From positions 1,632,001-1,696,000 of the forward strand of contig CAVZYA010000002.1 of NCBI GenBank assembly GCA_963779415.1: 64,000 nucleotides of DNA, read 5' to 3'. A program made the position numbers and the translations under genes. The first letter of the stretch is position 1. Each line of letters opens with the position of its first letter. A model generated the notes under the pieces. It was not told where the DNA came from. It ran no database searches and was given only the letters and a program-made list of their open reading frames with translations. The DNA is from an uncultured Acidobacteriota bacterium (GTDB taxonomy: Bacteria > Acidobacteriota > Thermoanaerobaculia > UBA5066). Shown here one piece after another: positions 50,890 to 59,840 of this stretch.

Positions 50890-53281
50890 TTAGTGCATTG
50901 CCAGCGGCGCCCCTTTCGGCAGCTTCACAGTGCGACAAATCCGCGCGAGGAGGTCGTCAAATCGTGGCTCTCCCCGGAAAAGGCCGAAGATCGGGTCGGT
51001 CGTGCACGCGAACGACAACATGGGCGTCCGCTCTTCGAACCCACGCTCCAGGGCGTGATAGGCATCCTTCTTCTCCCCCAGGCCCAGGTGGACGAGGGCG
51101 AGCTGGTAGGGCGACACGTAGCGGGCTTTCGAGAGGTCTTGGAGCTCGCGGAGGATCCGGCGGGAGTCGTCGCGCCGCCCCGCCTGCCCGTAGGCAAGGC
51201 CTAGGCAGGCGAGAAAGTTCAGATTCCGGCCCGAGGGCTCAATCGTCGCCTCGAAATCGGCGACGGCGCGCTGAGGCTTCCCTGCGGCCAGGTAGGCCTG
51301 CCCCTGATCCAGCGGACGAGGAAGTTACCTGGGCTCCGGGCAAGAGCCTGTCCGCACTCCTCAATCGCCCGGTCGAACCGGCGCTCGAAATTGAGAATCG
51401 CGCAGCCGTTGATGTCGTTCCATGGCGAGAACGGGTCAAGCTCGCGCGCAGTCTTCAGGTGCTCGCGCGCCTCGCCGAAACGGTCAAGGAAGAAATAGAG
51501 GAGCTGCGCGTACAAACCGTGTGCGGCCGCATATCCCGGCCGCAGCTCCAGGGCCTTCCGGTAATGACGCTCGGCGGCCTCCACGTCCCACTCCCCGTCC
51601 AGTGCGATCACGGCCCGGGCGTTATGAGCCTCCGGTAGGTGGTCGTCGAGCTCGAGGGCCTTTCGGGCCGCGCCGAGCGCTTCGTCCTGCACGGAGCCGG
51701 GCGGGACGAACTCGAAACCAGTTTCCGCCAGCGTCCACGTCGCCTCTGCCAGCCCCGCCCAGCCTGGTGCGTAAAGGGAGTCCAGCTCCGTCGCCCGCTT
51801 GAAGAAGTCGATCGCGGCCCGTAATTCTTTCTCGGTTGCTCCGTGCTCGAGGAGAGGCCGTCCCTTTAGCACGGCCTCGTAGGCTCCTGGGTCCACCTTC
51901 CGCTGGGAGGCAAGCCGCTGGCTTTCCTGCGGCGACACCTGCACCCGGATTTCGCTGGCGATGGCGCGCACCACCTCCCCTTGCAGCGCCAGTACATCCG
52001 TCATCTCGCGTTCGTAGTTGCTGGCCCAGAGGTGCCGGTCCTGCTGCGCGTTTATGAGCTGCGCCGTGATTCTGACTCGCGAGCCGGAGCGCACCACAGA
52101 GCCCTCGACGATCCCTTCGACCCCCAGTTCTCTTGCGATCTCGGAAATTGTCTTTTTCGAGTCCTTGTACTGCATCGCCGACGTCCGGGAGATCACCTTC
52201 AGGGCGCGGATCTGCGCGAGATCCGCGATGAGCGCATCCGTCATCCCGTCTGCGAAGAAGTCCTGAGAGGCGTCGCCGGAGTAGTTCTTGAGGGGAAGGA
52301 CGGCGAGGGACTGGATCGGTGTGGCGCCGGCGGGCTTCGATGCGAAAGGCTTCAGGACGAGCACGATGGCGGCCGCCGCCAGTAGGGCTGCCGCGAGCGC
52401 GGCGATCAAGACCCAGCGCCTCCTCGCGACAGGCTGCGATGGCGGTGTTGCCATAGCCAGCGCACCGGGCCGGGTCCTCAGCTCCTCGGCCAGGTCCGAA
52501 AGCTCGTGCCGAAGATCGCGAGCCGACTGGATGCGCGCGCGCGGGTCCTTTTCGAGACAGTGCTCGACGATCCTGACGTAGGCGGCCGGGAGGTCGGTCC
52601 GGATCCCTTCGAGCGGCGGAGGGTCTTCCTTGAGGATGGAGGCGGCGATCTCGGCTCCGGTCGCCCCCGTGAAGGGCCGCCGGCCGCTCGCCAGCTCGTA
52701 GAGCAATGCGCCGAAGGAGAAGATGTCAGCCCGCGCGTCGGCCTTCTCGCCCCGAAGCTGCTCCGGAGCCATGTAGGGCACCGTGCCGAAGATGTTCCCT
52801 GCCGCCGTCAGCGCCTCCGTCACCGACTCGGTGTGGAGGGACGGCGAAGATGACGGAGCCGAGACCCGGGCGAGGCCGAAGTCGAGAATCTTCGGCGGCC
52901 CTCGTCGTTGACCATCACGTTTCCCGGCTTGAGGTCCCTGTGAACGACGCCGCGGGCGTGGGCGGCGGCGAGGGCGTCGGCGATCGGGATCGCCCAGTCG
53001 AGGATCTTCTTCAAAGAAAGCCCGCCCGGCTCGATCAGCTCCGAGAGCGCCCGGCCCTGTATCCGCTCCATCGCGAGGAAGCGGATGCCGCCGGCTTCCT
53101 CGATGCCATAGAGCGTGACGATGTTCGGGTGATTGAGGGCGGCGACGGCCTTTGCCTCGCGCTCGAAGCGGGCGAGGCGGTCGGGATCAGCGGCCACCTC
53201 GGACCGAAGGATCTTCAAGGCGACAAGGCGGTCGAGACGCGTGTCCCGAGCCTCGTAAACCTCCCCCATCCCTCCGGCACC
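50890..53281 (-). pseudogene. Ser/Thr kinase-TM-TolB-like/TPR protein, 5'-truncated and frameshifted
   Basis: GAGGMGEVY, VALK, HRDLKPGN, DFGLAR, YMAPEQ, SLAVLPL..FADGMTD, TPRs, spread over at least 3 frames. No start codon seen before the Gly-rich loop. Confidence 0.75.
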
Positions 53282-53346
53282 GGGTCCGGACGCGGGCGTA
53301 GACTTTCGTCGGGAAGCCGGAGAGGCTGACCCGGCGAGGTGAAGTC

Positions 53347-53562
53347 ATGGCCGAGAGCGTCTACAAGATCATCGAGCTCGTCGGTACGAGCAAGGAGTCG
53401 TGGGAAAAGGCCGCGGCGGCGGCCGTGGCGGTCGCGTCGAAGAGCCTTCGCGACCTCCGGATCGCCGAGGTCTGCCAGCTCGACATGCAGGTCGAGGGAG
53501 GAAAGGTCACCGCTTACCGGGCGAAGGTCAAGGTCTCCTTCAAGTACACGCCCGGGAAGTGA
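53347..53562 (+). CDS. Dodecin (flavin-binding protein)
   Basis: SVYKIIELVGTSKESWEKA...YRAKVKVSFKY. Confidence 0.93.
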   Translation: MAESVYKIIELVGTSKESWEKAAAAAVAVASKSLRDLRIAEVCQLDMQVEGGKVTAYRAKVKVSFKYTPGK

Positions 53563-55005
53563 GTGCCGCGTCTCGCTGACGGCGCCACGACAGGCGGGAC
53601 GGGAAGCGCCCGGCTCGAGCGGCGGCTCGGGGCGTGGGACGGGGCGCTCCTGACCATCGGATCGGTCGTCGGGACGGGGATCTTCCTCACGACCGGAGAC
53701 ATGGCGAAGGCCCTGCCGCACGCGGGGCTGATCCTCCTCGTCTGGCTCCTCGGAGGGCTCCTCACCCTCGCGGGCGCCCTCACCTACGCCGAGCTGGGAG
53801 TCCTCTTCCCGCGTGCGGGCGGCATCTACCATTTCCTCAAGGAAGCCTTCGGCCCGTTCGTCGGCTTCCTCTACGGCTGGACCTCGTTCGTCGTGATCAT
53901 GTCGGGGGGGGTCGCGGCGATCGCCGTCGGATTCGGGGAGTACTTCGGGGCTTTCGTCCCGGCCTTCGCCCCCGCGCGGCTCCTCGTCGAGATTCCCCTC
54001 GGTCCCCTCACGTGGAAGATCGCCGGGCCGCAGGCCTCGGGCGCGATCGCGATCCTTCTCCTGACGCTTCTCAACCACGCCGGCCTTCGCGAAGGGGCGG
54101 CCGTGCAGAACTTCCTCACCGTGGCGAAAGGGGGCGCGCTCCTCGTCCTCGCCCTTCTCGGGCTCGGGGGGATCGGCGCCGTCTGGCACGCGGCCACCGC
54201 GCCGGTCGACCTCTCCCTGCGAATGCTCATCGCCGGTCTCGGCAGCGCGATGGTCGCCTCGCTCTGGACGTACGACGGGTGGTACGCGCTGACGCTCTCG
54301 GCGGGCGAGGTGCGAAACCCTTCGCGCGACCTTCCCCGAGGCCTCGTCGGCGGGACGGCGGCGGTCGTGGCGCTCTACCTCCTCGTCAACCTGACGTACC
54401 TCCGGGCCCTCCCGATCGACCAGCTCGGCCGGACGACGCGCGTGGCCGAGGCGGCCGCCGAGGCGCTGCTGGGGCCGGCGGGCGCCCGGCTCGTCACCGC
54501 GACGATCGCCGTCTCCATGCTCGGCTGCCTCGCCGCGACGATCCTCTACGCCTCGCGCCTCTACGTGCCGATGGCCGAGGACGGGGTCTTTTTTGCGGCG
54601 GCGGGGCGTGTCGATCCGGTGCGCCATACCCCCACCGGCGCTCTCTGGATGCAGGGGGTCTGGAGCGCCCTTCTCGCGGCGACGGGCGGGTACCGCTCGC
54701 TCTACACGTGGGCCACTTTCGCGGTCGTCCTCTTCAACGTGGCCGGCGGGACGGCCCTCTTCGTCCTCCGACGCACGAGACCCGATGCCGACCGCCCGTA
54801 CCGTGCGTGGGGCTATCCGGTCGTTCCGGCGTCGTTCCTCCTCGCCTGCCTCGCTCTCACCGTCGCCACTCTCTTCCAGAGCCCGGTCGAATCGGGTTTG
54901 GGCCTCGCCGTCGTGGCCTCGGGCGTGCCGGCGTGGCTCTGGTGGCGGAGGCCGAAGGGACGGCGTCCCGCGGCGCTTGACAGGCCGAGAGGCGGCAATC
55001 AATAG
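53563..55005 (+). CDS. APC-family amino acid permease
   Basis: GSVVGTGIF, AELG..FPRAGG, YDGW, EVRNPSRDLP, RPYRAWGYP; about 12 TM helices. Confidence 0.93.
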   Translation: MPRLADGATTGGTGSARLERRLGAWDGALLTIGSVVGTGIFLTTGDMAKALPHAGLILLVWLLGGLLTLAGALTYAELGVLFPRAGGIYHFLKEAFGPFVGFLYGWTSFVVIMSGGVAAIAVGFGEYFGAFVPAFAPARLLVEIPLGPLTWKIAGPQASGAIAILLLTLLNHAGLREGAAVQNFLTVAKGGALLVLALLGLGGIGAVWHAATAPVDLSLRMLIAGLGSAMVASLWTYDGWYALTLSAGEVRNPSRDLPRGLVGGTAAVVALYLLVNLTYLRALPIDQLGRTTRVAEAAAEALLGPAGARLVTATIAVSMLGCLAATILYASRLYVPMAEDGVFFAAAGRVDPVRHTPTGALWMQGVWSALLAATGGYRSLYTWATFAVVLFNVAGGTALFVLRRTRPDADRPYRAWGYPVVPASFLLACLALTVATLFQSPVESGLGLAVVASGVPAWLWWRRPKGRRPAALDRPRGGNQ

Positions 55006-55034
55006 TCGTCGAAAGAGAGAAAGCGGAGATCCTT

Positions 55035-55679
55035 TTGTACGCAGAGATGCAGGAAGCCGTCGTCCAGGGGGATGCGGCCCGGGCGAGGAGGCTGGCCGAA
55101 GCCGTCGTGAACGGCGGGGGGGACCTCGTCGCGGCGATCGAGCAGGGGTTCGCCGCCGGGATCCGGAAGGTGGGTGACCTCTGGGAAGAAGGAGAGTACT
55201 TCCTTCCCGAGCTGGTCCAGGGTGCAGAGGCGATGAAGGCCGCCATGGGGGTCCTCCAGCCCGCGCTTCGGAAAGCCCACGGCGCGAAGGCCTCGAAGGG
55301 GCGGGTCGTCATCGGCACGGTTCAGGGAGACCTCCACGACATCGGGAAGACCCTCGTCGCAACGCTCCTTTCGGCGGGGGGGTTCGAGGTGGACGACCTC
55401 GGCAGCGACGTCCCCGTCGACCGCTTCCTCGCACGGGCAAAGGAAAACGGCGCCGACATCATCGCCGCCTCGGCCCTCCTGACCACCACCATGCCGGTCC
55501 AGAAAGCGATCGCCGAAGGGATCCCGTCCCTTGGGCTCGCCCCGCAGCCCCGGCTTCTCGTCGGTGGCGCGCCGACGACGGCGGCCTGGGCTGCGGAGAT
55601 CGGCGCGGGCTGGGCGGAGAACGCCCTTCGCGCCGTCGCGGTGGCCGAGGCGCTCGTGAACTCCGCCCGGCGCGCGTGA
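55035..55679 (+). CDS. Corrinoid (B12-binding) protein, MttC/MtbC-like
   Basis: Cap domain YFLPELV; GDLHDIGK (DxHxxG), SALLTTT, VGGAP. Exact start uncertain. Confidence 0.92.
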   Translation: MYAEMQEAVVQGDAARARRLAEAVVNGGGDLVAAIEQGFAAGIRKVGDLWEEGEYFLPELVQGAEAMKAAMGVLQPALRKAHGAKASKGRVVIGTVQGDLHDIGKTLVATLLSAGGFEVDDLGSDVPVDRFLARAKENGADIIAASALLTTTMPVQKAIAEGIPSLGLAPQPRLLVGGAPTTAAWAAEIGAGWAENALRAVAVAEALVNSARRA

Positions 55680-56566
55680 ACGCCTTCGCCGAGCGCCTGC
55701 GCCTCCGCGAGACGACCCTCCTGGACGGGGGCCTCGGTAGCCTGCTCATCGCGCGGGGGCTCGCTCCGGGCGCGGCGCCCGAGTCGTGGGTCCTTTCGCG
55801 CCCCGACGACGTCCGCCGCGCGCACGGCGACTACGCTTCCGCCGGGAGCGACGCGGTTCACGCGGCGACTTTCGGGGCGAACCCGATCCGTCTCGCGAGG
55901 TTCTCTCTGGCCGACCGGTGCGAGGCCGTGAACGGAGAGGCCGTCCGGCTGGCCCGTGAGTCCGGCGCGCGTTTCGTCCTGGCGGACGTCGGCCCGACGG
56001 GCGAGTACCTCCCTCCGGTCGGGACGGGCGACCCGCAAGCCTGGAGAGCCGCGTTCCTTCGGCAGGGGCGGGCGCTGGCCGCAGCCGCGCCGGACGCTCT
56101 CCACGTCGAGACGATGACGGACCTGCGCGAGGCCCTGATCGCGCTCGAAGCCCTTCACGAAACCGCGCCGTCGCTCGCCGTGCTGGTCTCGCTGACCTTC
56201 GAGAAGAAGAAGCGGGGCTTCTTCACGATCATGGGGGACCCGCTGGCGAAATCGCTCCGGACGCTCGCCGAAGCCGGGGCCGTCGCCGTCGGCGCGAACT
56301 GCACGCTCGCGAGCGGAGAGATGCGGCCTCTCGCCGAGGAGGCCCGGGCTGCCGTGGATCTGCCTCTCGTCATCCAGCCCAATGCAGGGTCGCCGGAGAT
56401 GCGGAACGGCTCGGTCTTCTACTCGCAGTCGCCCGAGGCCTTCGCCGAGGAGATGGCGTTCGTTGCATCTCTCGGCGTCGAGCTGGTGGGGGGATGCTGC
56501 GGAACCGACCCTCGCTTCATACGTGCCCTCGGGAACCGCCTCGACTCGAAGAGGCCCCGGCCGTGA
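55676..56566 (+). CDS. Homocysteine S-methyltransferase domain protein (stand-alone MetH Hcy domain)
   Basis: LLDGG, TFGAN, ETM, and Zn ligands GANC and GGCCGT; PNAG. Confidence 0.92.
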   Translation: MNAFAERLRLRETTLLDGGLGSLLIARGLAPGAAPESWVLSRPDDVRRAHGDYASAGSDAVHAATFGANPIRLARFSLADRCEAVNGEAVRLARESGARFVLADVGPTGEYLPPVGTGDPQAWRAAFLRQGRALAAAAPDALHVETMTDLREALIALEALHETAPSLAVLVSLTFEKKKRGFFTIMGDPLAKSLRTLAEAGAVAVGANCTLASGEMRPLAEEARAAVDLPLVIQPNAGSPEMRNGSVFYSQSPEAFAEEMAFVASLGVELVGGCCGTDPRFIRALGNRLDSKRPRP

Positions 56567-57297
56567 CCGGTCTCCGCGAGCAGGACAAGAAGCCCCCTGC
56601 CGCCGTCTCCAACCCGGGGCCTCCTGTGATCGTCCCTTCGATTCGGCTCTCCATCCTGGAGAGCGACGTCCTCCACTTCCTCGGCTATCCGAAGGGGCGG
56701 CGGCCGGCGGCTCGGCTCGAGCCCGTTCTCGAAGGCGTCCTTCGCGAAGCGAGAAAGCTCGCCGCCGCGCGCGGCGCGTTCCGGACGCTGCCCGTCTCCT
56801 CGGCCGCCGAAATCGGGCTGGAGGAGGAGGAGGCCGACGGGCTCGTTCTCGGCCTCGTCACTGCGGGGGGTGGGATCGAGCGGCGCGTGACGGAGCTTCT
56901 CGGCCGGGGAGAGGATTCCCGCGCCCTCCTGCTGGATGCCGCCGGAAGCGCCGCTGCCGAGGAAGCCGCGAACCGGCTGAGCGTCAGGGTCGTCGGCGGC
57001 AGGAGAGACGGGGACCTCGACGTCGGCTGTCGGGTCAGTCCCGGATACGGCCGCTGGCCCCTCTCTGCCCAGAAAGCCCTTCTCGCGCGTCTCCCTCACG
57101 AGACGCTCGGCGTGTCGCTTAATCCTTCGATGATGATGACTCCACGCAAGTCGATCTCCTTCGCCCTCTGGCTCGGCGCGAAAAGGGCGCCGAGGTCCGG
57201 GCTCTCGGGATGCGACACGTGCGGCCTGCCGCACTGTCGCTACCGCCGCTCCGCCGGGGGCAGGAGATCACGTTCTTCCCGCGAGGTGACGAGTTGA
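56563..57297 (+). CDS. B12-dependent methionine synthase activation-domain protein
   Basis: LLDAAGSAAAE, SPGYG.WPL..Q, MMTPRKSIS, C-terminal CDTCGLPHCRYR. Confidence 0.85.
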   Translation: MTGLREQDKKPPAAVSNPGPPVIVPSIRLSILESDVLHFLGYPKGRRPAARLEPVLEGVLREARKLAAARGAFRTLPVSSAAEIGLEEEEADGLVLGLVTAGGGIERRVTELLGRGEDSRALLLDAAGSAAAEEAANRLSVRVVGGRRDGDLDVGCRVSPGYGRWPLSAQKALLARLPHETLGVSLNPSMMMTPRKSISFALWLGAKRAPRSGLSGCDTCGLPHCRYRRSAGGRRSRSSREVTS

Positions 57298-58757
57298 TGG
57301 CATCGCAAGTGAGGCCCACGGTTTCCCTCCTCTCTTCCGACGACGTCGAGACCATCGTCCAGGAAGCCTGTGACGTCCTCTCCGAAACGGGAGTTCTCGT
57401 CGAGAACCATGACGGACGGCTCCTTCTCCGGGACGGGGGAGCCACGGAAGCCAGCGGTCGCTTCAGGATTCCGGAGGCCATGGCTCGCCGGGCGCTGGCG
57501 ACGGTTCCGCCGCGCATCGAGCTTTTCGACCGGGACGGCGCTCCCGCGATGGACCTGGGCGGAGACCGAGTCCACTTCGATCCCGGCTCGGCGGCCATCC
57601 ACCTCTTCGACGCCTCCACGCGGCGGCGCCGGGCGATCTCGACCCGCGACGTCGTCCGGTTCGCCCGCCTCGTCGACGGCCTGCCGAACTACGCCGCCCA
57701 GTCGACGGCCCTGACGCCGGGCGACGTCCCGGGCGAGGTGGCGGACCGGTACCGCCTCTACCTGATTCTCCGCTCTGCCCGCAAGCCGGTGGTCACCGGC
57801 ACCTTCAGGAAGGACGGCTTCGCCCCGATGCGCGAATTGCTCCTCGCCGCGCGTGGGAGCGACACCGAGCTGAGGCGCCGTCCGCTCGCCATCTTCGACT
57901 GCTGCCCCAGCCCTCCGCTGAAATGGAGCGACCTGACCGGACAGGCGCTCGTCGACTGCGCCCGCTCGGGGATCCCCGCGGAGCTGGTCTCCATGCCGCT
58001 GGCGGGCGCCACCTCGCCGGTCACCCTTCGCGAGGCGGTCGTCCAGCAGTGCGCGGAGAACCTGAGCGGTGTCGTCATCCACCAGCAGGCGGCTGCCGGC
58101 TCGCCGCTGATCTGGGGCGGCTCGCCCGCGGCGATGGACATGCGCCACGGCACGACCCCGATGGGCGCCGTCGAGACGATGATGATCGACCTCGCCGCGT
58201 CGCAGGTGGGGAAGCGGCTCGGCCTCCCGACGCACGCCTACATGGGGCTGTCGGACTCGAAGTGTCCCGACTATCAGGCGGGCTTCGAAAGCGGGATCGG
58301 AACGATCCTCGCGGCGCTGGCCGGCATCAACGTCGTCTCGGGCCCCGGAATGCTCGACTTCGAGATCTGTCAGTCGTTCGAGAAGCTCCTTCTGGATCAC
58401 GACGTCTGCGGCATGGCGCTGCGGCTCGTCCGCGGGATCGACCACCGCGAGGGGGATGCCGCCGCCCTGATCCGGCAGGTCGTCGAGTCGTCCGAGTTCC
58501 TCTCGCACCCCCACACCCGGAAACACTGGAGGGAGGAGCTGACCGTCCCGTCGGGGCTCGTGGCCCGCGACACGTACGGCGACTGGGAGGCCCGTGGCGC
58601 GCCCTGGGCTCACGAGGAGGCCGCGAAGGAGGTCGAGCGCCGGCTCTCGAAGTGCCCGCCCCGCCCCCCGTCGCCCGACGTGACGCACGCTCTCGACGGG
58701 ATCATGCGGCACGAGGTCCGCGCCGCCGGCCTCTCGGAGCTCCCCTCCCTCGAGTGA
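57297..58757 (+). CDS. Trimethylamine methyltransferase (MttB) superfamily, non-pyrrolysine
   Basis: PSPPL, PLAGATSPVT, AENLSG, MDMRHG, HAYMGLSDSK, QAGFE, GPGML, FLSHPHT. No in-frame TAG. Confidence 0.92.
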   Translation: MASQVRPTVSLLSSDDVETIVQEACDVLSETGVLVENHDGRLLLRDGGATEASGRFRIPEAMARRALATVPPRIELFDRDGAPAMDLGGDRVHFDPGSAAIHLFDASTRRRRAISTRDVVRFARLVDGLPNYAAQSTALTPGDVPGEVADRYRLYLILRSARKPVVTGTFRKDGFAPMRELLLAARGSDTELRRRPLAIFDCCPSPPLKWSDLTGQALVDCARSGIPAELVSMPLAGATSPVTLREAVVQQCAENLSGVVIHQQAAAGSPLIWGGSPAAMDMRHGTTPMGAVETMMIDLAASQVGKRLGLPTHAYMGLSDSKCPDYQAGFESGIGTILAALAGINVVSGPGMLDFEICQSFEKLLLDHDVCGMALRLVRGIDHREGDAAALIRQVVESSEFLSHPHTRKHWREELTVPSGLVARDTYGDWEARGAPWAHEEAAKEVERRLSKCPPRPPSPDVTHALDGIMRHEVRAAGLSELPSLE

Positions 58758-58766
58758 TCCCGTCAA

Positions 58767-58794
58767 AGCCGTCGGGGTCAAGCCGTCGGGGTCA
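58767..58794. repeat. Tandem repeat AGCCGTCGGGGTCA x2 at the left element tip
   Basis: Exact copies at 58767-58780 and 58781-58794. Confidence 0.9.
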
Positions 58795-59840
58795 GGCACC
58801 AATTTTCTATTATACGAAACGGACGATCCGAAGGGTCAGGTCTCATTTTTCTGGTATTCTGTAAGGCATGAGCCGTCCCCTTCGACTCGAGTTCGCCGGA
58901 GCCCTCTGGCACGTCACTTCCCGCGGGAATGAGAAGCGGGAGATCTTCCGCGACGAGGCGGACCGCGAGATGTTCCTCGCGATCCTCGGCCGGACGGTCG
59001 GCCTGTTCCGCTGGACGCTCCACGCGTACGTCCTCTTGGGAAACCACTTTCACCTCCTCGTCGAGACGCCGGAGCCGACGCTCTCGCGCGGGATGAGGCA
59101 GCTGAACGGCCTCTATACGCAGGCCTTCAACCGCCGACACCGGCGTGTCGGGCATCTGCTTCAAGGACGCTTCAAGTCCGTCCTCGTCGACAAGGAGACG
59201 CACTTCCTCGAACTCTCCCGGTACCTCGCTCTGAACCCGGTCCGGGCGGGGGCCGCCCGCTCGGCCCGCGCCTGGCCCTGGAGCAGCTACCGCGCGACCG
59301 CCGGCCTTGCTGCGGCGCCGGCATGGCTGGAGACCGACGCGACCCTCCGGCGTTTCGGGGCGAAGAAGGGCCCGGCCGAGGAGGCGTACCGGAAGTTCGT
59401 CGCCGACGGGAAGAACTCCGGGTACGACCCCTGGGAGCAGGTACAGGGACAGGTCTATCTCGGATCGGACGATTTCGTCGAGGCGGCCGAGAGGCGCGCC
59501 GAGGGACGCGGGGAGGCAGGGAAAGCGCGCCGTCCGCGACTCGTGCGATCGGGCTCGCTTTCCGAGCGGCTCGAGGAGGGGGCGGAGCGCCTCGGGGTTT
59601 CTCTGGAGGAGATGAAGCAGCATCCCCGTTGGCACATCCGCGAGCGGCGTCTCCTCGCGTGGGACGTCCGGCGGCGCGGCCTCTTCCGCCTTCAGGAGAT
59701 CGGCGCGGCGCTCGGCGTCGGGGCCGCCCAGGTCTCGGTGCTCATCCGGGGAGGCGAAGCGCTGGCCGCCTCCGGAGACCGCCTTGCACGGAAGCTCCTT
59801 ACCGGCCGGCCGCTATAATTGAAAATAGGTACCTGACCCC
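58788..59840 (+). mobile_element. Y1/HUH RAYT-like element with 28-bp inverted repeats and a second inner left motif
   Basis: IR 58788-58815 vs 59813-59840 match at 24/28. Extra GGGTCAGGTCTC motif at 58833. Confidence 0.85.
58868..59818 (+). CDS. Y1 (HUH) tyrosine transposase, RAYT/TnpA_REP-like
   Basis: WHVTSRGNEK, NHFHLL, GRFKS, RYLALNPVRAG, WPWSSY. Paralog of the 15097 CDS. Confidence 0.92.
   Translation: MSRPLRLEFAGALWHVTSRGNEKREIFRDEADREMFLAILGRTVGLFRWTLHAYVLLGNHFHLLVETPEPTLSRGMRQLNGLYTQAFNRRHRRVGHLLQGRFKSVLVDKETHFLELSRYLALNPVRAGAARSARAWPWSSYRATAGLAAAPAWLETDATLRRFGAKKGPAEEAYRKFVADGKNSGYDPWEQVQGQVYLGSDDFVEAAERRAEGRGEAGKARRPRLVRSGSLSERLEEGAERLGVSLEEMKQHPRWHIRERRLLAWDVRRRGLFRLQEIGAALGVGAAQVSVLIRGGEALAASGDRLARKLLTGRPL

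Follow-up and report, generated by a model that had tools for sequence, protein, structure and literature searches.

A six-gene acidobacterial operon predicted to make methionine from a methylated amine by way of an MttB-family protein

Positions 53347 to 58757 of the window (the whole 64,000-nucleotide stretch of DNA that was analysed, from contig CAVZYA010000002.1 of an uncultured Acidobacteriota bacterium) carry six densely packed genes on the plus strand. They encode a dodecin, an APC-superfamily permease, a corrinoid protein, a stand-alone homocysteine S-methyltransferase (hcyMT), a MetH-type activation protein and an MttB-superfamily methyltransferase without pyrrolysine (Pyl). We think it rather probable that this operon specifies a cobalamin-dependent methionine synthase built of separate modules, which makes no use of methyl-tetrahydrofolate (methyl-THF) and is fed through MttB by an imported methylated amine. 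As the chemistry of the families suggests, the permease would bring in a methylated ammonium compound, and the non-Pyl MttB would move its methyl group onto the Co(I) of the corrinoid protein. The zinc-dependent hcyMT would then pass the group from methyl-Co(III) to homocysteine, yielding methionine and regenerating Co(I), while Co(II) would be repaired by the activation protein, which is of the TM0269 type, through reductive methylation with S-adenosylmethionine (AdoMet). Such a system would be a functional B12-dependent analogue of betaine-homocysteine methyltransferase (BHMT). In the window organism it would stand beside the ordinary MTHFR-MetH route, either as a second methionine route or as a means of methyl harvest.

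The idea has been published before. Williams et al. (2022, Environ Microbiol 24:2576, PMC9324843), in the accessible part of their text, describe a four-gene cluster in Ca. Electryoneota and "diverse bacteria", and propose on genomic grounds that it serves corrinoid-dependent methionine synthesis from an unknown methyl donor. The segment at 55035-58757 has the same four components, a non-Pyl MttB among them, and invites the same hypothesis; in both cases the genome also holds a full-length MetH. What the window operon adds to the published cluster is a co-transcribed, lineage-specific permease and dodecin. For Acidobacteriota, a literature search on trimethylamine methyltransferase and homocysteine found no earlier description.

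Genes, junctions and modules of the operon

The original prediction, drawn from the letters of the DNA, had six tightly coupled genes in this interval with no pterin-binding gene and no RamA gene among them. Coordinates, Pfam domains (Table 1) and junction overlaps agree with the first part, and Pfam finds neither of the missing genes in the cluster or its flanks. The dodecin TGA directly abuts the permease GTG (53562/53563), and 29 bases, with a GGAG ahead of the corrinoid gene, separate that gene from the permease. From there on the genes overlap: GTGA at 55676-55679 joins the corrinoid and hcyMT genes, GTGA at 56563-56566 joins hcyMT to the activation gene, and TGATG at 57295-57299 joins the latter to mttB. 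The translational coupling of the operon genes is real. These overlaps also fix the gene calls of the last two genes. A start of the activation gene at ATG 56494 was dropped, GTG 56563 being the most likely start given the junction, and for mttB ATG 57297 is preferred to ATG 57210, both by the junction and because an identical database protein (P0001) has 486 amino acids (aa). As to expression, no RNA data set is listed as containing the operon; 17 DNA data sets are listed, each with a small share.

Table 1. Coordinates of the operon genes and related features (window numbering unless stated)
Feature	Position	Strand	Evidence
Dodecin, 71 aa, operon gene 1	53347..53562	+	Pfam PF07311, E 2.3e-25
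Permease of the APC superfamily (480 aa), probably importing the methyl donor	53563..55005	+	PF13520 AA_permease_2, E 1.4e-54
Corrinoid (B12-binding) protein, MtgC/MttC-like, 214 aa	55035..55679	+	PF02607 B12-binding_2, E 1.1e-19; PF02310 B12-binding, E 4.7e-25
Stand-alone homocysteine S-methyltransferase (hcyMT), 296 aa, three zinc-ligand Cys	55676..56566	+	PF02574 S-methyl_trans, E 1.3e-56
TM0269-type MetH activation (AdoMet-binding) protein, 244 aa from GTG	56563..57297	+	PF02965 Met_synt_B12, E 7.2e-6
Non-pyrrolysine MttB-superfamily methyltransferase, 486 aa, predicted methyl-donor module	57297..58757	+	PF06253 MTTB, E 3.4e-75
CTG (Leu) codon at the pyrrolysine-UAG position of MttB	58248..58250	+	phmmer alignment to 7xcl
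MetH frame change	L085:1650-1700, i.e. contig C2 of the same genome, about 255,010-255,030, outside the window

The corrinoid protein and hcyMT both carry the residues expected of their families. Among NCBIfam models, the corrinoid protein is closest to MtgC NF047995 (195.9 bits against a cut-off of 310) and to the "pyl_corrinoid" subfamily, and hcyMT to the N-terminal half of YitJ-type fusions (205.7 bits) and to "BHMT" PRK07534 (169.7 bits), all below the respective cut-offs. The motif DLHDIG predicted earlier corresponds to D99, H101 and G104, and this D-x-H-x-x-G motif, like the S-x-L and GG motifs, is kept in at least 95% of 114 corrinoid homologues. GANC and GGCC, likewise predicted, supply the zinc ligands C209, C274 and C275 of hcyMT, kept in at least 95% of 104 sequences.

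The activation protein, predicted from the outset as a MetH-type reactivation domain, has a marginal Pfam match to PF02965 (26.1 bits, cut-off 25). The assignment is strengthened by a phmmer match to PDB 1J6R (TM0269 of T. maritima, E 3.6e-8) and by structure. An AlphaFold2 model built with 17 homologues (predicted local distance difference test, pLDDT, 82.5; predicted template modelling score, pTM, 0.80) finds its top Foldseek hit in 1j6r_A (E 1.3e-10; target TM 0.73), and the matches listed at E <= 0.001, of 19 counted by the program, are all MetH activation domains, from Thermus, human and E. coli. A motif R-x-SPGYG-x-W is invariant in the 17 aligned rows; it contains the tested R-x-x-P-G-Y motif, which we take to contact AdoMet. 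Separately, the activation proteins in 15 of the 17 rows end in a C-x2-C-x4-C tail, the other two rows stopping before it. In the window the tail lies at 57211-57243 (residues about 217-227), beyond the range aligned with 1J6R and in a poorly modelled part, and it might bind a metal or an Fe-S cluster through which electrons enter in reactivation.

The genome around the window (4.36 Mb in 3 contigs, 92.4% complete) has two PF00809 matches, one in a full-length MetH and the other in the dihydropteroate synthase DHPS (TIGR01496, 242 bits, cut-off 162.6). Hence PF00809 finds no stand-alone pterin methyltransferase in this 92% complete genome, and neither RamA (PF14574), DUF1638 (PF07796) nor a MetE-type PF01717 was found there. 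The only PF06253 gene is the mttB of the window. The absence of a stand-alone pterin methyltransferase and of RamA, together with the joint travel of the core genes described below, supports the idea that methyl groups pass from MttB through the corrinoid protein to hcyMT. That the two enzymes would share this protein fits the observed adjacency of the genes and the conservation of the motifs.

Distribution of the cassette and its independence of folate

Of 8000 database candidates scored against the window MttB, 6295 are relatives at E <= 0.001, and the best 120 of these are 59-100% identical. With one genome taken per species, at least 587 of at least 598 pattern matches encode an MttB relative. 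The 80 best loci, taken from species genomes that span many phyla, show the window's own order, corrinoid-hcyMT-activation-mttB, in 52 cases, and the cassette MttB is found in species genomes labelled Myxococcota, Krumholzibacteriota, Eisenbacteria, Ignavibacteria and others. Among 401 sampled Acidobacteriota genomes with a completeness of 90% or more, 79, the window's own included, encode a homologue at E <= 1e-100. None of the three genomes of the same family and none of the four of the same order in this sample does so, and the distribution is thus patchy.

From the other 78 acidobacterial genomes 79 loci were taken. Their gene orders are mttB-activation-corrinoid-hcyMT (17), hcyMT-mttB-activation (9), mttB-corrinoid-hcyMT (7), APC-hcyMT-corrinoid-mttB (4) and others, with hcyMT at most 5 kb from mttB in 50 of the 79. 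Altogether the four core genes co-occur in at least seven orders. When the two sets are pooled into 160 loci, among which L074 and L127 at least are duplicates and in which loci cut by contig ends are scored as lacking the gene, a corrinoid gene is present in 125, an activation gene in 106 and hcyMT in 104. The cluster is accordingly conserved: its core genes travel together in several orders and many phyla, and all three partners of mttB are found in 75 of the 160 loci. The activation protein and RamA/RACo are nearly exclusive of each other (activation protein only in 104 loci, RamA/RACo only in 18, both in 2, neither in 36), which fits one shared role. As a side observation, a second, divergent hcyMT gene (L004:145-1002 and L005:1822-2679, both on the minus strand), accompanied by a corrinoid-like gene, lies on the opposite strand some 3 kb upstream of the cassette in the two closest relatives, one of which has MetH on the cassette's contig, within a few kb.

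We searched 50 of the 52 genomes with the window's gene order (L006 and L044 were left out) with the MetH of the window organism, and 25 have a match of MetH length and 25 have none. Among the latter, six have PF01717, 11 have a second, weaker PF00809 match, and in eight, taken at whatever completeness, neither was found. In the 78 acidobacterial genomes, each at least 90% complete and judged by its best E-value, a MetH-length match is lacking in 39. Sixteen of these have PF01717, one of them only as a 22.5-bit fragment, and 26 have a second PF00809 match elsewhere, individually unverified. Six, 91-100% complete (G207, G072, G166, G244, G363 and G425), show no MetH, no PF01717 and no second PF00809. 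MTHFR is missing in five of the 39 (G207, G072, G244, G425 and G443), that is, in four of these six against one of the 33 others. Thus four genomes from four families, 94-100% complete (G207, G072, G244 and G425), have the cassette yet no MetH, PF01717, second pterin gene or MTHFR. Incomplete bins can hardly account for so coherent a loss of the methyl-THF branch, and this is the main new argument for folate independence. Cys/Met-family pyridoxal phosphate enzymes are present in all five of the six cassette-only genomes examined for them (G166 was left out).

The gene content of these four genomes also supports a stronger proposal, that in some lineages the cassette has become the primary and sole methionine synthase, with MTHFR, MetH and MetE dropped and one widely available methylated nitrogen compound as the donor. 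We regard this as a tentative possibility only. Were it so, the cassette of the window organism would be an auxiliary route fed by a dedicated permease.

A different view of the same gene sets is that the corrinoid and homocysteine modules and the activation protein form a split MetH with methyl-THF as the main donor and the pterin module encoded elsewhere, MttB being secondary or mainly passing methyl groups to folate for catabolism as MtgBCDE does in Ruegeria. In that system, according to the accessible part of Mausz et al. (2025, PNAS, PMC12478193), genetics shows a single corrinoid protein to be common to an MttB-family betaine methyltransferase and a split MetH, and both MtgC and the pterin protein MtgD are indispensable for making methionine and for betaine use. 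The second, weaker PF00809 genes in 11 of the 25 and 26 of the 39 MetH-less genomes would suit this view. Two from the former set were scanned, and their best match is the methyl-THF:corrinoid methyltransferase NF005719 (220.6 and 228 bits against a cut-off of 259). In the acidobacterial family f42 (L188, L178) the cassette consists of hcyMT-mttB-activation with an EamA transporter, and the corrinoid gene stands at a second locus (G251:C38, G321:C57) beside pterin and MTHFR genes, which is close to the logic of MtgBCDE. The window genome, however, has no stand-alone pterin module, a pterin domain adjoins the cassette in only one of the 160 loci, and in the four cassette-bearing genomes without MetH, PF01717 and MTHFR no second pterin gene was found. 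As an account of the window operon we consider a folate-fed split MetH unlikely. In many relatives, on the other hand, the cassette probably also serves such an enzyme, and where a second pterin gene exists MttB is, by analogy with MtgBCDE, probably an added input to the split MetH and not a replacement for its folate module. The original prediction, in which MttB replaces the folate module, is thus supported in part, by the joint travel of the genes and by the window genome, in which a pterin subunit encoded elsewhere was looked for and none that stands alone was found; it probably does not carry over to the majority of the MetH-less acidobacterial relatives. Another way of splitting MetH is seen in some MetH-less Acidobacteriota away from the MttB gene, where a homocysteine module is directly followed by or fused to a pterin module with no B12 domain (G289:C53:5989-7551, G076:C10:35364-36823).

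Several points weigh against folate-independent synthesis by the window operon. Its genome has MTHFR and MetH, with a yitJ-like HcyMT-MTHFR gene directly upstream of MetH, so that methionine can be made here without the cassette, barring a genuine frame change in MetH. The MetH gene shifts its reading frame early in the activation domain, in an A-rich stretch, both parts being otherwise open and conserved (Table 1); either an indel of the assembly or a recent frameshift could account for this, and in the latter case the cassette would matter more for this organism. No riboswitch, leader or other methionine-linked regulatory element was found at E <= 1 in 52000-59500. In 56 of the 160 loci there is no hcyMT nearby, and while some of these are cut by contig ends others are complete, which suggests that MttB can also work with other acceptors. 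The 26 second pterin genes among the 39 MetH-less genomes raise the possibility that in many lineages the corrinoid and homocysteine modules mainly serve a folate-dependent split MetH. The MetH-less genomes are metagenome bins, in which absence means only that a gene was not found. Finally, every catalytic step proposed here is deduced from family membership.

The methyl donor

A leucine at the position of pyrrolysine had been predicted for MttB, and this proves correct. In the phmmer alignment Pyl334 (X) of the M. barkeri MttB structure 7xcl falls on the Leu of YMGLSDSK, MtgB (2qne) also has Leu, the codon is CTG and the mttB frame contains no TAG. A sub-threshold PYLIS_3 match (27.4 bits, gathering threshold 38) begins at 58248; we rejected it as a functional element, for it reflects homology of the coding sequence. 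The window MttB scores about equally against 7xcl (E 9.7e-52, 179 bits) and 2qne (E 1.9e-49, 172 bits), and may belong to the uncharacterised clade, apart from MtgB and MttB, in which Williams et al. place their protein. Against the trimethylamine MttB model TIGR02369 it reaches 332 bits, below the cut-off of 525.

According to the accessible part of Picking et al. (2026, PMC13080624), the glycine-betaine site of MtgB consists of Y97, F356, R312 and H348; every member with an established function keeps R312, and all these members act on acidic quaternary amines. We mapped these residues through the 2qne alignment (chain index = native + 16), giving the window residues in the numbering of the 486-aa protein. 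Y97, R312, H348 and F356 correspond to S98, H313, S348 and E356, so that none of the four is kept. With R312 itself replaced, glycine betaine is disfavoured as the donor, and we propose from these residues that the donor is probably another compound. Across 16 clade members with 61-100% identity, S98, H313 and S348 do not vary. The pocket would thus be conserved yet different from that of MtgB, which argues for one specific donor other than glycine betaine, probably the same compound across the clade.

The permease offers a second approach to the donor. Its best NCBIfam match is the LAT-type TIGR00911 (228 bits, cut-off 701.8), and it reaches the curated cut-off of no substrate-specific model. 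An APC gene adjoins the cassette in 13 of the 160 loci, upstream or downstream. In a tree of these permeases ten of the 13 fall into a single group (support 91/97, under the star threshold), which includes that of the window and of its 84%-identical neighbour L008 and excludes all seven paralogues of the window genome; those of L011, L117 and L142 fall outside. The recurrence of this group beside the cassette supports a dedicated transporter. The step that the original prediction takes, from an amino-acid permease to an N-methylated amino acid as substrate, is weak, since no substrate-specific cut-off is reached and APC transporters also carry organocations. The conserved non-betaine pocket and the cassette-linked permease make the question of the donor directly testable. 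The dodecin, on the other hand, adjoins the cassette in one of the 160 loci, that of the window itself; it was rejected as a general component of the system and is a local addition to the operon.

A dedicated permease would also suit an operon that is mainly catabolic, in which an imported nitrogen compound is demethylated for use or export of the product, homocysteine is only a recycled methyl sink and methionine is a side effect. The permease is co-transcribed and belongs to the recurrent cassette-linked group, many transporters of the LAT type that it matches best are exchangers, and MetH is available in the same genome. The MttB-family enzymes characterised so far, as presented in the accessible parts of PMC12478193 and PMC13080624, serve catabolism. 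Against this, homocysteine recycling would limit the methyl flux, some genomes show no other methionine synthase, and no conserved gene for the breakdown of a demethylated product adjoins the cassette, the commonest flank family occurring in 15 of the 160 loci. We therefore hold a mainly catabolic role to be improbable. As a clue to the substrate, too, the flanking genes of the 160 loci gave nothing general. The top families occur in 15, 13 and 12 loci and are bound to lineages: a thioredoxin-reductase-like flavoprotein and an isochorismatase (Krumholzibacteriota-type), RamA (Aminicenantes-type), M49/M20 peptidases, and EamA (f42). In the Krumholzibacteriota-type loci the flavoprotein (16 loci) and the isochorismatase-family hydrolase (13) follow mttB on the same strand, for example at L042:4669-5559 and L047:7658-8323; the pair may offer an electron donor for reactivation and a clue to the substrate.

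The flanks of most loci hold no conserved transporter, and some genomes seem to depend on the cassette alone. Could MttB then use an endogenous donor, such as a methylated pterin or another metabolite, instead of an imported quaternary amine? According to the part of PMC9842639 available, MttB folds as a TIM barrel, as do the pterin modules, which would be in keeping with this. Yet all characterised non-Pyl members in the accessible parts of PMC12478193 and PMC13080624 use quaternary amines, the permease is co-transcribed with mttB in the window, and four of the six cassette-only genomes have no MTHFR, so that methyl-THF is an unlikely donor there. An endogenous donor seems to us very improbable.

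Comparison with known systems and the surroundings of the operon

One of the closest known systems is MtgBCDE of Ruegeria pomeroyi and Phaeobacter inhibens (PMC12478193, accessible text), which likewise combines an MttB-family enzyme with a stand-alone homocysteine module, MtgE. Its genes are scattered, whereas those of the window form one operon; its essential MtgD has no stand-alone counterpart in the window genome; and its reactivation is predicted to proceed via RamA and DUF1638, neither of which the window genome has, the TM0269-type protein being found instead. The window MttB also departs from MtgB in all four residues of the glycine-betaine site. The MtgB-MtgC-MtgA system of Desulfitobacterium hafniense (2QNE; PMC13080624, accessible text) shares with the window a PF06253 protein with Leu and an MtgC-like partner. 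Its acceptor module, though, is the pterin protein MtgA (glycine betaine:tetrahydrofolate), where the window has hcyMT, and the window MttB is no closer to 2qne than to the Pyl enzyme 7xcl.

In canonical MetH four modules form one chain; in the window three of them are separate genes and the pterin module is absent. Thermotoga maritima, as Huang et al. are said to have described in 2007, has a MetH (TM0268) with a separate activation protein, TM0269. Both TM0269 and the window protein are stand-alone AdoMet-binding activation proteins of about 215-245 aa that replace the fused C-terminal domain of MetH, the window protein having the C-x2-C-x4-C tail in addition. In TM0268, however, the homocysteine, pterin and B12 modules remain joined in a single chain.

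BHMT and the MesA-D "core MetE" synthases (Price et al. 2021, PMC7857596, accessible part) also methylate homocysteine without methyl-THF, and for the Mes families the argument for folate independence was likewise made from MTHFR-less genomes. BHMT transfers the methyl group directly, without B12, whereas the window system would be corrinoid-dependent; the Mes enzymes are MetE-like PF01717 proteins, and the window has PF02574 with a dedicated corrinoid protein and MttB. Should the reading hold, the folate-independent methionine synthases would gain a B12-dependent member. The methionine synthesis of many uncultured bacteria from soil, sediment and groundwater would be tied to B12 and a methylated amine, not to folate, and genome-based predictions of auxotrophies and cross-feeding would change.

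The genes on either side of the operon are unrelated to it. Upstream, on the minus strand, lies a Ser/Thr kinase gene with TPR repeats (51219-53269), split into two open reading frames (52820-53269 and 51219-52823) that hold positions 13-135 and 156-260 of the Pkinase profile. Beside that in MetH, this is a second apparent break of frame within one gene, close to the operon, and suggests that the assembly may contain indel errors. Just past the mttB stop, a 14-base unit, AAGCCGTCGGGGTC, occurs twice in tandem at 58766-58793. It is followed by an IS200-like (Y1 transposase) gene at 58868-59818, and a GMC oxidoreductase gene is also found downstream. The tandem repeat, the IS200-like gene and the patchy distribution of the cassette may reflect mobility.

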